Part shown: positions 35,200 to 59,843 of the stretch, in pieces
Layout of the letters: every line of letters starts with the position of its first letter
How positions within the stretch are numbered: the first letter of the stretch is position 1
From: Escherichia phage pinkbiff
Direction: 5' to 3' (one strand)
Sequence record: MN850603.1
DNA length: 64,000 nt
Notes under the pieces: generated by a model
The model's database searches: none
Seen by the model: the letters and a program-made list of their open reading frames with translations, nothing else
What the model was told of the DNA's origin: nothing
Position numbers and translations under genes: made by a program

Positions 35200-35691
35200 T
35201 TAGTTATGTCTTGCAAACTCACCATGAAGTTCTATTCGCTTTTTAATTACAGCTTCTTTTGCTTCTTCTACCGTTTTAAATCTTCCACAAAAGTATTCTT
35301 TATGGTAAAGCATGACTCTTGCTTTGTAAAGACCTGTTTGTTTACAAAAACTTACACCCTTCACACCAGTTTTATTATTCTTGTATATACCCCTATTCCT
35401 CTGATTTTGTGACTTTGTGCTAAGTCTTAAATTCTCCAACTTATTATTAGATTTATCAAGGTCTATGTGGTCTATCTCATATCCACTTGGTATCTCACCT
35501 CCAGACATAATCCATGCAATATTATGTGCATAGTACCTCTTCTTATTTATCTGGACTTGGATATAACCCTTCTTAGACCTTGTGCCAGCAACATTACCAG
35601 CAATAGCGGTATTGCAAAGGGTTACTTTCCAAATTAGTAAACCTGTCTCCGGTTCGTATATTAGGTATTTTTCGAAGTAACCCTTATCCAT
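35200..35691 (-). CDS. HNH homing endonuclease with AP2-type DNA-binding domain (163 aa)
   Basis: E-I-D-H-I-D ... N-N-x-x-x-N-L-R-L motif, C-terminal K-x-G-V-K-G-V ... G-x-F-x-T-x-E-E-A; inserted between the NAMPT-like and Prs-like genes. Confidence 0.8.
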   Translation of the reverse strand: MDKGYFEKYLIYEPETGLLIWKVTLCNTAIAGNVAGTRSKKGYIQVQINKKRYYAHNIAWIMSGGEIPSGYEIDHIDLDKSNNKLENLRLSTKSQNQRNRGIYKNNKTGVKGVSFCKQTGLYKARVMLYHKEYFCGRFKTVEEAKEAVIKKRIELHGEFARHN

Positions 35692-35699
35692 TTTAATAC

Positions 35700-56658: not shown

Positions 56659-59358
56659 ATGGAAAACGTAGATTTTAAAAACTTACATTTGGTTGGTGAT
56701 ACAGAAACTGATGGTTTACTCCTTGAGTTCACTAAAGTGCACGTAATGGCTTTCGCAGACTATAAATCTGACGAGGAAGAGCCACCTGTATGGGTCTTTA
56801 CAGATGAACCTATCCTCGGTCACAAGTACACTAAGTACATCAAAGGTGGTTTACGTGAAGGTGTTGAATTTGCGTTAAAGGCAAAACGTCTTTGCATTCA
56901 TAATGGTCTCGGTTATGACTGGTGGGTTTTCAATCACATTGCACCTGATTTATGGAACTTTGATAATCCAAAGTGTAAACCGTGGAGTAATTTCTTTCAG
57001 GACTCTCTTATCCAGTCTCGTGTTCAGTGGATGGATAGGCCAACCCCAAAGGGTTATAAAGGTGCTCATGGTTTGGCTGCATGGGGTGCTCGTGTTGGTG
57101 TCCGTAAACCAGAGATTGAACATTGGGGTGTGTGGAATGCAGAAATCTTCACTCGTGTTGTAGAAGATATCCGTATTAATGCCAAAACTAAACGGGCACT
57201 TGATAACGAGTATCTCAAGCTTAAGAAGTGTGGTATAGACACTTATGAGACTTACATGCGAGCTAAAGAGACATCTTTCTGGATGAGCCAGCAAGCTATC
57301 AATGGTTGGAAAGCTGATAAAGAGCTTATGGAGTTCCATGTAAAGGAACTTGACAAGTTGACTAATGAGCTTGCTTCAGAGGTTGAACCACATCTTCCTC
57401 CAACTATTAAGACCAAAGGTAAAGTCACTGGAGAAGAGTTTGCAAAAGCTTGGAATGAGTATGTTGAAACATTCGGTCATGCAGATGGACTGAAGAGAAT
57501 TACCAAGTACCCTAAAACAAAGTATCGTCAGCAGGTACGTAACGGTGAGATGCAGACATACGAAATCAAGCCATTTGGTAAGCCAACTACAAAGATTTTT
57601 AACATTGAAAAGAGAAATTGCTATACACCAACCAACTCTGTAACTGGTGAAGAGTACAAGGAAGGCTTTGTAGCAATGAAGGATGCTCGTGCAATTTGCA
57701 ATGAGTTGAATGCAAAGATTGGCAAGAAATGCAAAGACTGGAAGCCAGTAAAAACAGTCAAGACTGTGAAGTACTATAACAGTCACGTTGTCAATCACTT
57801 TGAACTTGAGTCAAGTCGCTACACAGGTTTGATTGATGCACCATATACACCAATTGAGTTTGAAGTTTCTCGTATGACTCAGGTAGCAGTTGTTAAAGAC
57901 TACTTGAAATCAGTTGGTTGGATTCCAGATGACTGGAACTACAAGAAAGACTCAGACGGTCGCCCTGTCAAAGTTTGTCGTTTCAAAGACAATAAAAAGA
58001 TGATTACAAAACACCCTAAGTGGCAGGAAATGGTTGAGCGGTGTGGTTTGAGTTATGTTGAACATGAAGGTGTCCAGTATATTGAGCATAACTGGTCTGT
58101 GAAGAAATACACAGATTTGCTTGAGCCTTGCTTAATCCGTACTTCACCAAAACTTACTGAATCATCTTATGATACGATTGAAGGTGAGCTTGGACAGAAG
58201 ATTGCTAAATACTACACTTTGATGCACCGACGCAGAACTATTGAGAACTCAAAGGATGATGAAAAAGGTTGGTTGAACCAGATTCGTCCTGATGGTCGCC
58301 TTAGTGCTGGTGCAATGGTGTTTGGTACTTCAACTGGACGTATGACACAATATGGTATTGTAAACGTACCGTCTGGTGCTGCTGTCTATGGAGCACCTAT
58401 GAGGGAGGTGTGGACTTGTGAAGATGGTACAGATATCATCTCCGTAGACCAAAACTCAGCCCAGCTAGTTCTTCTTTGTAACTTTATGGGTGATGAAGAC
58501 TTCACTAAAGCGGTAACTGAGGGTAAAGAGTCAGTAGAGTTCACTAAGCAAGATGATGGTAGATACTACTGTAAACATCTTGACAAGTATCTTAACCCAG
58601 AAACTGACAAGTATCTGCGTTATGATGCTGAAAATGACCTCTATGAAGTCTACACAGGGACTGATGCGCATACACTGAACAGTATTTACTTTGGTCTTAA
58701 CAAAGAAGAGGATATTGTTCGTTGCAGGGAGACACAGGATGAGGAACTTCTCCACGAGATTACAAAAGGTCGTAAGAAGAGCAAAAATGGCATCTACGCC
58801 CTGTTATTTGGAGCCGGAGACGAGAAGTTTGCAAAAACTATCAAGGCATCATCTACGGAAGAGGGTGCATTGACTAAACAAACTTACTTTGTGCGTCTAC
58901 CTAAGATTAAAAAGCTGCTTGATAGACTAGAGGAAGACTTCAAAGCAACTAAGAAAGCACTTGAAGAGGTTTTCGGAAAGACTTCTGCAATTGCAAAAGG
59001 TGGCTATATCAAGGTTGCTGGGGCGTGGTTATGGTGTAAATCTCCACATAAGTTATTGAATTACACACTTATGGGCAGTGAGGCGCAGGTGCAGAATGAG
59101 GGTATTAACTTGGCTAACAGGGAGTTAACAGAGCGCAAGCTTACAGTTCTAAATGGTAGGAAGCCAGCTATTGGTGCTAGGTGGGTCTGTAGTTACCACG
59201 ATGAGGTCTCTTTAGAGGTTCCAACCAAAGATGTACCTGATGTTAAGGAGATTATTGATAGAATGTATGGTCAAGCATCAAAAAATCTTGGATTAAAGAG
59301 TAAGACGCTTGTTACAGGCACTGGTAAGGTAGGTAAGACATGGTACGCCGTACACTAA
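56659..59358 (+). CDS. DNA polymerase, family A, with 3'-5' exonuclease domain
   Basis: Exo I L-V-G-D-T-E-T-D-G; motif B-like R-K-K-S-K-N-G-I-Y-A-L-L-F-G-A-G; motif C Y-H-D-E; ATG 56659 with GAGGGAG SD. Confidence 0.88.
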   Translation: MENVDFKNLHLVGDTETDGLLLEFTKVHVMAFADYKSDEEEPPVWVFTDEPILGHKYTKYIKGGLREGVEFALKAKRLCIHNGLGYDWWVFNHIAPDLWNFDNPKCKPWSNFFQDSLIQSRVQWMDRPTPKGYKGAHGLAAWGARVGVRKPEIEHWGVWNAEIFTRVVEDIRINAKTKRALDNEYLKLKKCGIDTYETYMRAKETSFWMSQQAINGWKADKELMEFHVKELDKLTNELASEVEPHLPPTIKTKGKVTGEEFAKAWNEYVETFGHADGLKRITKYPKTKYRQQVRNGEMQTYEIKPFGKPTTKIFNIEKRNCYTPTNSVTGEEYKEGFVAMKDARAICNELNAKIGKKCKDWKPVKTVKTVKYYNSHVVNHFELESSRYTGLIDAPYTPIEFEVSRMTQVAVVKDYLKSVGWIPDDWNYKKDSDGRPVKVCRFKDNKKMITKHPKWQEMVERCGLSYVEHEGVQYIEHNWSVKKYTDLLEPCLIRTSPKLTESSYDTIEGELGQKIAKYYTLMHRRRTIENSKDDEKGWLNQIRPDGRLSAGAMVFGTSTGRMTQYGIVNVPSGAAVYGAPMREVWTCEDGTDIISVDQNSAQLVLLCNFMGDEDFTKAVTEGKESVEFTKQDDGRYYCKHLDKYLNPETDKYLRYDAENDLYEVYTGTDAHTLNSIYFGLNKEEDIVRCRETQDEELLHEITKGRKKSKNGIYALLFGAGDEKFAKTIKASSTEEGALTKQTYFVRLPKIKKLLDRLEEDFKATKKALEEVFGKTSAIAKGGYIKVAGAWLWCKSPHKLLNYTLMGSEAQVQNEGINLANRELTERKLTVLNGRKPAIGARWVCSYHDEVSLEVPTKDVPDVKEIIDRMYGQASKNLGLKSKTLVTGTGKVGKTWYAVH

Positions 59359-59843
59359 CACTTCAAGACTACAAGGATAATTCTATTTACGACCCCGACA
59401 AAGGGGTCTTCTACAACAAGTATGACAGGAATAGACAAGCTAAAGCTGGGCAGATTGCAGGAGGTGCTGATGCTTACGGTTACAAAGTACTTAAATTCAA
59501 AGATGTCGTAATAAAAATTCATCACCTCGTTTGGTGGTTCGAACATGGTTACAAACCCACTAAGATGATAGACCACATTGATGGTAACAGAAGTAATAAT
59601 CACATTTCTAATCTTAGGGAGACTGATAAATACGGAAATGCTCAAAATAGAGTAAAGCAGACGACTAACAAATCAGGTTACAAGGGTGTATATTACTTTA
59701 AAGACTGCAATAAGTGGAGGGCAGCTATAACATGTAGAGGTAAAAGGACATCACTTGGTTTATTTGACACCCCTGAAGAAGCCCATAAAGCTTACTGTGA
59801 AGCTGCTATTAAACTCCACGGAGAGTTTGCAAAACTAAGTTGA
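59340..59843 (+). CDS. HNH homing endonuclease with AP2-type domain (167 aa)
   Basis: I-D-H-I-D-G-N-R-S-N-N-H-I-S-N-L-R, C-terminal K-S-G-Y-K-G-V ... F-D-T-P-E-E-A; overlaps the last 19 nt of the polymerase gene. Confidence 0.8.
   Translation: MVRRTLTLQDYKDNSIYDPDKGVFYNKYDRNRQAKAGQIAGGADAYGYKVLKFKDVVIKIHHLVWWFEHGYKPTKMIDHIDGNRSNNHISNLRETDKYGNAQNRVKQTTNKSGYKGVYYFKDCNKWRAAITCRGKRTSLGLFDTPEEAHKAYCEAAIKLHGEFAKLS

Follow-up and report, generated by a model that had tools for sequence, protein, structure and literature searches.

Between positions 35200 and 59843 of the sequence of Escherichia phage pinkbiff (record MN850603.1), five nuclease genes lie directly against conserved genes of nucleotide metabolism and replication, one of them inside nrdD. 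This raises the question of whether the five are mobile elements or ordinary phage genes, and of what kind of insert interrupts nrdD. The stretch analysed has a length of 64,000 nucleotides and is called the window in the following. It is very probable that this module has been colonised by two kinds of selfish DNA, namely free-standing HNH-AP2 genes and a group I intron that carries an HNH gene, and that it contains in addition one fixed nuclease gene of the GIY-YIG type. This view is carried by the identities and boundaries of the genes, by their polymorphism among related phages, by an RNA structure with covariation, by the restoration of a reading frame and by purifying selection. A previous sequence-only reading of the window had listed four HNH-AP2 genes. 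Three of these are indeed HNH-AP2 genes (sites 1, 3 and 4 in Table 1), whereas the open reading frame (ORF) in nrdD is of the HNH_3/NUMOD1 type without AP2; thus, the set consists of three HNH-AP2 genes and one I-HmuI-like HNH gene, the latter located inside a group I intron.

HNH-AP2 genes at three variable sites

The window derives from a Felixounavirus, a Felix O1-like myovirus, and its identity to Felixounavirus genomes is 93-96%. A search with its region 35000-59900 gave 365 matching phage records; the best of them (Alf5, nataliec and Felix O1) are 95-96% identical over 93-94% of the query. Comparison of the insertion sites with relatives, proposed in the sequence-only reading as a check, revealed that sites 1, 3 and 4 are all polymorphic for presence and absence. 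Each site has a clean empty allele that can be aligned, and the window alleles are found in ~25%, 7% and 6%, respectively, of ~245 relatives. Site 1 is located between the stop codon of prs and the ribosome-binding site of the NAMPT gene (nadV); 61 of 242 relatives have it occupied, and a short GGGGCTTAAAAGCCCC-ATTTT hairpin takes up this interval in the empty allele. At site 3, the HNH gene has entered the gene for the 5'-3' exonuclease FEN in its last ~11 codons, and the window allele is present in 17 of 243 relatives. The end of FEN reads KYGWTPNVNPTNS before the stop codon where the site-3 gene is present, compared to KYNWEPCMNED in the empty alleles of warpig and Tribble. An alternative allele, found among others in Felix O1, fjerdesal and Mooglevirus, encodes a protein with 55-59% amino acid identity and has only the first ~85 nucleotides in common with the window gene, the true start of which may be the second ATG at 49766. 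At site 4, the HNH gene starts within the last six codons of the DNA polymerase gene (window allele in 16 of 250 relatives), and its stop codon lies inside a TTGACA hexamer (59840-59845) that is annotated as part of a promoter in the AYO145A record. At least three other alleles are found at this site (NBSal004, Mushroom and Si3), with 42-56% amino acid identity and the last ~95 nucleotides identical, and AYO145A and Barry are empty. Felix O1 carries HNH-AP2 genes at all three sites, with amino acid identities of 93% (site 1), 57% (site 3) and 98% (site 4).

The three proteins of the window can be aligned with each other over their full length with 34-40% identity. When the alleles of other phages are included, HNH-AP2 proteins from different sites are 31-41% identical, compared to 42-59% for proteins from the same site in different phages; therefore, the family is old, with a separate lineage at each site. 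This does not agree with the recent paralogous spread that had been suggested for these genes: a recent duplication was rejected in view of the identity of 34-40%, and Felix O1 shows the same layout. As to the suggested C-terminal AP2-like domain, the Pfam cut-off for AP2 is passed by only one of the three, the site 4 protein, which matches plant AP2/ERF structures; the proteins of sites 1 and 3 align with it through the C-terminus, and phrog_99 is common to all three.

Pairwise comparisons revealed that the insertions are surrounded by divergent sequence. The block centred on the site-3 gene is 70-86% identical to Tribble (76-80% on the side of the GIY-YIG gene), while 47780-49130 and 50330-50790 are ~100% identical. 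The last ~950 nucleotides of the polymerase gene are 38-78% identical to AYO145A in most 50-nucleotide windows, with 96-100% identity before the block and right after the HNH gene, and the same trend is seen against Tribble. Across 33-62 kb, three of the main blocks of divergence from Tribble coincide with the three HNH sites. Nuclease genes are said, in work by Barth and colleagues from 2023, to lie at boundaries of genetic exchange between phages; similarly, sharp transitions from ~100% to 40-85% identity in the window coincide with endonuclease genes, although some divergent blocks do not adjoin a nuclease gene.

The divergence of the flanks fits endonuclease-initiated gene conversion with co-conversion but does not prove it. 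In such a process, each of the enzymes encoded at the 3' edges of prs, FEN and DNA polymerase would cut the allele of a related phage without the gene during a mixed infection. Repair from the endonuclease-carrying genome would then copy in the gene together with flanking sequence, and this copying would generate presence/absence polymorphism, alternative alleles at one site and divergent flanking blocks. The HNH-AP2 enzymes are predicted to cleave the empty alleles and their genes to be inherited preferentially, for which the divergence of the flanks is the only indirect evidence.

A group I intron in nrdD

The insert in nrdD is a group I intron, as seen from its hallmarks of sequence and structure. 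Exon 1 ends with ...AUGGGU at 41792, the intron opens with UAA and closes with ...AAUAAG, thus with a terminal G, and exon 2 begins with UGUAGAGCA, the first codon of which is the Cys codon of the PMGCR motif. In the internal guide sequence, the 3' half GCUCAUC pairs in seven of seven positions with the exon 1 end GAUGGGU and forms P1 with a U.G pair at the splice site, and the 5' half CUCUAUA pairs equally well (seven of seven) with the exon 2 start UGUAGAG to form P10. In the corresponding introns of Vibrio phage 1.084.O and of phita32, a coliphage of 139 kb, P10 is paired in five of five positions. Across the four introns compared, the U.G pair of P1 does not vary, and covariation of another P1 pair is seen in the Vibrio, phita32 and T4-type introns. 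The conserved core is present with GAAGAUAUAGUCU and P7 (GACUA/UAGUC), including P3-P9, the P3/P7 pseudoknot and J8/7. The endonuclease ORF occupies the loop of P6a and provides, with its last codons, the 3' strand of this helix.

In silico removal of the insert yields a NrdD protein of 714 amino acids without internal stop, with the length of Felix O1 NrdD and with the junction SPMG/CRAF (the slash marks the splice site) as in intronless alleles. The intron sits exactly before the codon of the PMGCR cysteine, which aligns with ~residue 290 of T4 NrdD, the active-site thiyl-radical cysteine. An intein was also considered and set aside, as the first triplet of the insert is a stop codon and the HNH ORF is provided with a start codon of its own, preceded by AGGAG. 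On the basis of its sequence, the intron is predicted to splice itself out of the mRNA and to rejoin ...PMG/CRA..., so that the full NrdD of 714 amino acids would be made.

Covariation was evaluated with four ORF-less introns. Eight in-register helices with 44 pairs were found to be 100% paired, with 18 compensatory pairs, whereas slid controls reached only 29-44% pairing and at most five compensatory pairs, and none of 500 shuffles reached the observed values. P4, P5, P6a, P9.1 and P10 are out of register in the MAFFT alignment; they are not part of the formal count and were checked sequence by sequence. In this check they pair fully, except for P5, which is short (3-5 base pairs) in every intron. 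A scan of the window with Rfam at the gathering threshold reported tRNAs only, while a sensitive scan gave split matches to the group I model RF00028 on both sides of the ORF with 33.1 bits (E=2e-6) and 15.6 bits. A natural form without the ORF, from phage REP10, scores 55.4 bits against the cut-off of 50, and its core is ~98% identical to that of the window.

The protein encoded in the intron matches I-HmuI (PDB 1u3e) over its full length (E=5.6e-9, residues 3-153 against 12-170). Like I-HmuI, a nicking endonuclease encoded in the group I intron that interrupts the DNA polymerase gene of Bacillus phage SPO1, it is a phage group I intron-encoded protein with an HNH core followed by a C-terminal helix-turn-helix/NUMOD-type DNA-binding region. 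It differs in host gene and phage group, and its sub-family has Lys or Arg at the position of Asp74 of I-HmuI. In phita32 and Vibrio phage 1.084.O, this intron, inserted at an identical position, encodes orthologues with 44-49% amino acid identity. By homology, the protein is an I-HmuI-like endonuclease for which site-specific nicking or cleavage is predicted; on intronless nrdD, it would introduce a nick or a cut close to the insertion site and thereby lead to homing of the intron. An indirect hint of such cleavage-driven homing may be seen in the exon 2 tract adjoining the intron (41002-41049), which is 77% identical to both intronless alleles compared, versus 96-100% in most of the rest of nrdD; the changes are mostly synonymous. 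On the exon 1 side, 110-500 nucleotides upstream of the intron, a mosaic patch specific to Felix O1 was observed: between 41902 and 42300, the identity to the window drops to 52-86% in Felix O1 and is 100% in warpig.

The relatives fall into three classes, with the intron and its ORF in 59, the intron without ORF in ~34 (intron-bearing records amount to 93 in all), and an uninterrupted nrdD in ~150, including Felix O1. Phages without the ORF (REP10, at ~1731-2046 of its stretch, REP5-12, EC6, SPJ41 and others) have an insert of 316 nucleotides with an in-frame remnant of 12 HNH codons, MPNNFEYEFGYI, followed by a stop codon. Since the end-points of the deletion are identical in ~34 genomes, the loss of the ORF seems to go back to a single event that later spread. 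Outside this group, two unrelated phages, phita32 and Vibrio phage 1.084.O, contain the same intron at the same PMG/CR boundary with identical exon nucleotides (ATGGGT/TGTAGA); their NrdD proteins are ~30-33% identical to that of the window. The exact 32-nucleotide intron core was found in 14 IMG/VR contigs, most of them 84-94 kb and a few 137-160 kb long.

A 42-nucleotide stretch of the core (41174-41215) is 97.6% identical to the T4-type nrdD (sunY) intron. The T4 intron is located in the same host gene and has a homologous core, in which P3-P9 can be aligned with compensatory changes. However, it is inserted at ~residue 280 of NrdD, ~119 codons upstream of the site in the window (399/400), and it encodes the GIY-YIG endonuclease I-TevII downstream of the P7-P9 core instead of an HNH protein in the P6a loop. 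We propose tentatively, and with the balance slightly against it, that the intron represents an undescribed lineage related to T4 sunY which targets PMG/CR, carries an HNH protein of the K/R-H type in P6a and has spread across at least three unrelated phage groups (Felixounavirus, a coliphage of 139 kb and a marine Vibrio phage), and that stages of invasion, endonuclease loss and intron loss (59, ~34 and ~150 relatives) coexist within Felixounavirus. In phita32, nrdD apparently contains a second insertion (2385-2477 and ORF 2478-3011 of its stretch), which has an HNH-like ORF and is located at the T4 sunY site or close to it. In addition, 42 Pseudomonas phage and 10 Campylobacter phage records show matches to a portion of the intron sequence used as query.

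A fixed GIY-YIG gene and the weighing of alternatives

Several observations speak against colonisation by mobile elements, or at least limit how far it can be taken. The AP2 scores at sites 1 and 3 (20.8 and 20.9 bits) remain below the cut-off of 33.3. The intron HNH protein has Lys at the position of the metal-binding Asp74 of I-HmuI, and Lys or Arg is conserved there in the orthologues, giving K/R-H instead of D-H. The Rfam score of the window itself, 33.1 bits, is below the cut-off of 50, because the ORF loop of 484 nucleotides splits the model. The structure used for the covariation count was derived from the same four sequences, and therefore the proportion of paired cells is inflated, but not the count of double changes. 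Other divergent blocks are located away from endonuclease genes, for instance 36000-36500 and 37750-38250, and therefore mosaicism is not exclusively tied to these genes. Finally, cleavage, homing and splicing are activities predicted from sequence only. As to the two blocks, the first is located within prs, ~300-800 nucleotides from the site-1 gene, and is 69-86% identical to both Tribble and Felix O1; the second is unalignable with Tribble alone and is 98% identical to Felix O1. No identified nuclease gene adjoins either block.

The GIY-YIG gene differs from the other four in its distribution. It was found in every relative examined, with ~297 records at 60% identity or more (Mooglevirus 88%, Erwinia Ounavirinae 61%); the Felix O1 copy is 96% identical on the amino acid level, and tblastn gave 88% for that of Henu11. 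Since it is present in essentially all Ounavirinae, the gene is fixed in this subfamily rather than homing, and is not demonstrably mobile. Its inclusion among the homing endonucleases is thus not upheld: the position is occupied in all relatives, which the sequence-only reading itself had named as a finding that would speak against homing. It probably encodes a nuclease that serves the phage, or it would be a homing gene that was fixed long ago.

It is rather unlikely, but more plausible than the other alternatives considered here, that the gene still encodes an active homing endonuclease and is simply fixed in the subfamily. The strong SegE_GIY-YIG match, a secondary match to a PHROG annotated as 'homing endonuclease', the motif GFVY...YYLG (at residues 30 and 43) with candidate Arg, Glu and Asn residues assigned by eye against I-TevI, and the location next to the variable HNH site 3 point in this direction. 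However, the gene is present in essentially every Ounavirinae record and in other genera too, no relative without it was seen, and homologues with 30-37% identity are conserved across several hundred cyanomyovirus records. In addition, the protein consists of the catalytic domain (residues 22-139) only: no other Pfam domain and no recognisable DNA-binding module was found, and a PDB sequence search gave no significant match. The label 'NAD synthetase', which is widespread for this gene and includes phrog_447, is probably a propagated error.

The endonuclease genes could also be inactive relics that decay after fixation and no longer move, which we regard as improbable. Truncated or deleted copies do occur in relatives, such as the site-4 copy of Si3 with 117 amino acids and the 12-codon remnant of the REP10-type intron, and the intron HNH protein lacks the Asp of I-HmuI. 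The copies in the window, on the other hand, are full length with intact HNH motifs, and the ratios of nonsynonymous to synonymous substitution rates (dN/dS) are 0.11-0.24. Compared to the nearest allele, the values are 0.11 for site 1 (41 substitutions, Felix O1 copy), ~0.18 for site 4 and ~0.18 for the intron HNH gene, the latter two with few substitutions, and 0.24 for the GIY-YIG gene (Felix O1 copy). The K/R-H variant is conserved among orthologues that are only 44-49% identical, and the intermediate frequencies together with the available empty sites fit ongoing turnover.

Still less probable is that the HNH-AP2 genes are not mobile at all and function as phage regulators or accessory nucleases varying by strain, for instance as AP2-type DNA-binding factors or packaging-associated HNH proteins. 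AP2 is a DNA-binding domain of plant transcription factors, the genes are under purifying selection, and their overlaps with upstream genes suggest co-expression. However, most close relatives are viable phages that lack them, the empty sites are clean, and different alleles replace one another at the same site. The divergent flanks are typical of endonuclease-driven gene conversion, and the genes are located in the replication module, with no terminase gene adjacent. Furthermore, HNH-AP2 proteins are a recognised class of homing endonucleases in T4-related phages (PMC2993671, citing Magnani 2004 and Wuitschick 2004).

Least credible of all is a genuinely split nrdD, with a free-standing HNH gene between two halves that are translated separately and then assemble, as could be concluded from database records listing two nrdD coding sequences plus an endonuclease gene, from the description of the UAB_Phi87-type arrangement as a split gene (PMC4837284) and from the precedent of Aeromonas phage Aeh1, in which NrdA is split by mobE (PMC3653736): the insert has every hallmark of a group I intron, its removal exactly restores the Felix O1 reading frame, ~34 relatives keep the ORF-less insert, which would be unexpected for a split by an endonuclease gene, and the first possible start in the exon 2 frame is a TTG at 40968, 27 codons past the junction Cys, so that a separately translated downstream half would lack the PMGCR cysteine.

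The module in Felix O1-like phages

All five nuclease ORFs are uninterrupted and have exactly the coordinates of the sequence-only reading, and its statement that they hug conserved genes was confirmed by neighbours, positions and overlaps. According to Pfam, the neighbours are NAMPT-like and Prs-like genes, the two NrdD halves and FEN; the identity of the DNA polymerase ORF (56629-59358) is taken from the annotation in relatives. The site-3 gene overlaps FEN by 38 nucleotides and the GIY-YIG gene by 4 nucleotides, and the site-4 gene overlaps the polymerase gene by 19 nucleotides. A tblastn search with the five proteins and Pfam scans of 40 other ORFs detected no additional endonuclease gene in the window, and therefore all five lie in the nucleotide-metabolism and replication module. 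One ORF of 106 amino acids (37431-37751) is annotated as 'putative HNH endonuclease' in Tribble (through wV8); it matches only DUF7390 in Pfam and has no HNH signal, and the annotation is probably wrong. Outside the module, 26 tRNA genes are located at 2796-7968 on the minus strand with DUF7217 and DUF7338 ORFs between them; no endonuclease gene was present among the ORFs scanned there, unlike in the tRNA region of T4.

Table 1. Features of the window discussed in the text (strand: +, plus; -, minus;., not stranded). Pfam cut-offs are 24.8 bits for HNH_3, 33.3 bits for AP2 and 25 bits for SegE_GIY-YIG.
Feature	Position	Strand	Basis
HNH-AP2 gene, site 1	35200-35691	-	HNH_3 69.7 bits; AP2 20.8 bits (below cut-off); phrog_99 3.5e-69
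nrdD exon 2	40102-41049	-	Pfam NRDD positions 284-560 and Gly_radical (glycyl-radical domain)
Divergent exon 2 tract adjoining the intron, 48 nucleotides	41002-41049	-	77% identity
Group I intron, 742 nucleotides	41050-41791	-	Boundaries from alignment with intronless warpig
Intron HNH/NUMOD1 gene, 154 amino acids	41212-41676	-	HNH_3 41.2 bits; weak NUMOD1; phrog_59
Internal guide sequence CUCUAUA/GCUCAUC	41771-41784	-	P1 7/7; P10 7/7
nrdD exon 1, 399 codons	41792-42988	-	Pfam ATP-cone and NRDD profile positions 1-250
GIY-YIG-domain gene, 166 amino acids	48778-49278	-	SegE_GIY-YIG 95.1 bits over residues 22-139
Mosaic block centred on site-3 HNH gene	49130-50330	.	Comparison with Tribble
HNH-AP2 gene, site 3	49275-49781	-	HNH_3 44.3 bits; AP2 20.9 bits (below cut-off); phrog_99
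Divergent 3' block of DNA polymerase gene adjoining site-4 HNH gene	58410-59339	+	Comparison with AYO145A
HNH-AP2 gene, site 4	59340-59843	+	HNH_3 44.8 bits; AP2 44.0 bits (above cut-off); phrog_99

Relatives contain further insertions that the window lacks. In many of them (Mushroom, Si3, Tribble, Barry, BPS15Q2 and NBSal004), the DNA polymerase gene is split by another insertion ~550 nucleotides before its 3' end, corresponding to ~58810 of the window, and is annotated as two polymerase coding sequences; the polymerase gene of the window is uninterrupted. The insertion of Salmonella phage Mushroom (3010-3314 of its stretch) scores 62.3 bits with the Rfam group I model; those of Si3 and Tribble are located at 2241-3002 and 25342-26107 of their stretches, and some of the insertions carry an endonuclease ORF in the gap. 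Just downstream of nrdD (39704-40090 of the window), warpig (220-726) and Mushroom (169-669) carry an endonuclease gene for 166-168 amino acids that is annotated as NUMOD3 and is unrelated to the HNH-AP2 set, and small membrane-protein-like ORFs take its place in the window and in Felix O1. This position is thus a further polymorphic endonuclease site, empty in the window.

The density and variability of endonuclease genes are already known for Felix O1-like phages. Six HNH genes, but no introns, were reported for Felix O1 (Whichard et al. 2010, PMC3185647), and FelixO1-like phages were reported to differ mainly by insertions and deletions of endonuclease genes (Moreno Switt et al. 2013, PMC3728262). 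Felix O1 shares with the window the positions of the HNH genes of sites 1, 3 and 4 and of the GIY-YIG gene, but has an uninterrupted nrdD and a different HNH allele at site 3. The interruption of nrdD by an endonuclease gene was reported as a 'split gene' for UAB_Phi87, HB-2014 and JH2 (Bardina et al. 2016, PMC4837284), and UAB_Phi87 has the same arrangement of nrdD and HNH gene as the window. For SPJ41, which carries the ORF-less nrdD intron, 'two introns' were listed among predicted noncoding RNAs without further comment (SPJ41 paper 2023, PMC9951933). Outside subscription journals, we found no publication that describes the nrdD insert as a group I intron, gives its insertion site or relates it to T4 sunY.

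The free-standing genes resemble those of T4-type phages, that is, the Seg and Mob endonucleases (with MobE between nrdA and nrdB) and the HNH-AP2 genes of RB49, RB43, RB16 and JSE (PMC2988022; PMC2993671 Table 5). In both groups, the genes are placed at gene edges or between genes of nucleotide metabolism and replication, vary in presence and absence between close relatives, have co-converted flanks and include the HNH plus AP2 architecture. The Felixounavirus set differs in that it is known from sequence, and in that two of the three HNH-AP2 genes overlap the upstream gene and rewrite its last codons.

As dense and variable homing endonuclease genes have already been published as typical of Felix O1-like phages, the module adds little new biology in this respect; what is modestly new is limited to the annotation of the intron and its distribution across phages. 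In ~90 public Felixounavirus genomes, and in some unrelated phages too, the annotation of nrdD as a 'split gene' should be replaced by that of a single gene interrupted by a group I intron; at present, the downstream nrdD coding sequence in public records lacks the conserved PMGCR cysteine. The series of occupied, alternative and empty sites in near-identical phages provides ready substrates for studies of HNH-AP2 specificity, for example with the window and Tribble, which differ in a block of 1.2 kb around site 3. For phage-therapy genomics, it is relevant that Felixounavirus genomes are otherwise collinear and that most of the large insertions and deletions by which they differ are accounted for by the endonuclease loci.

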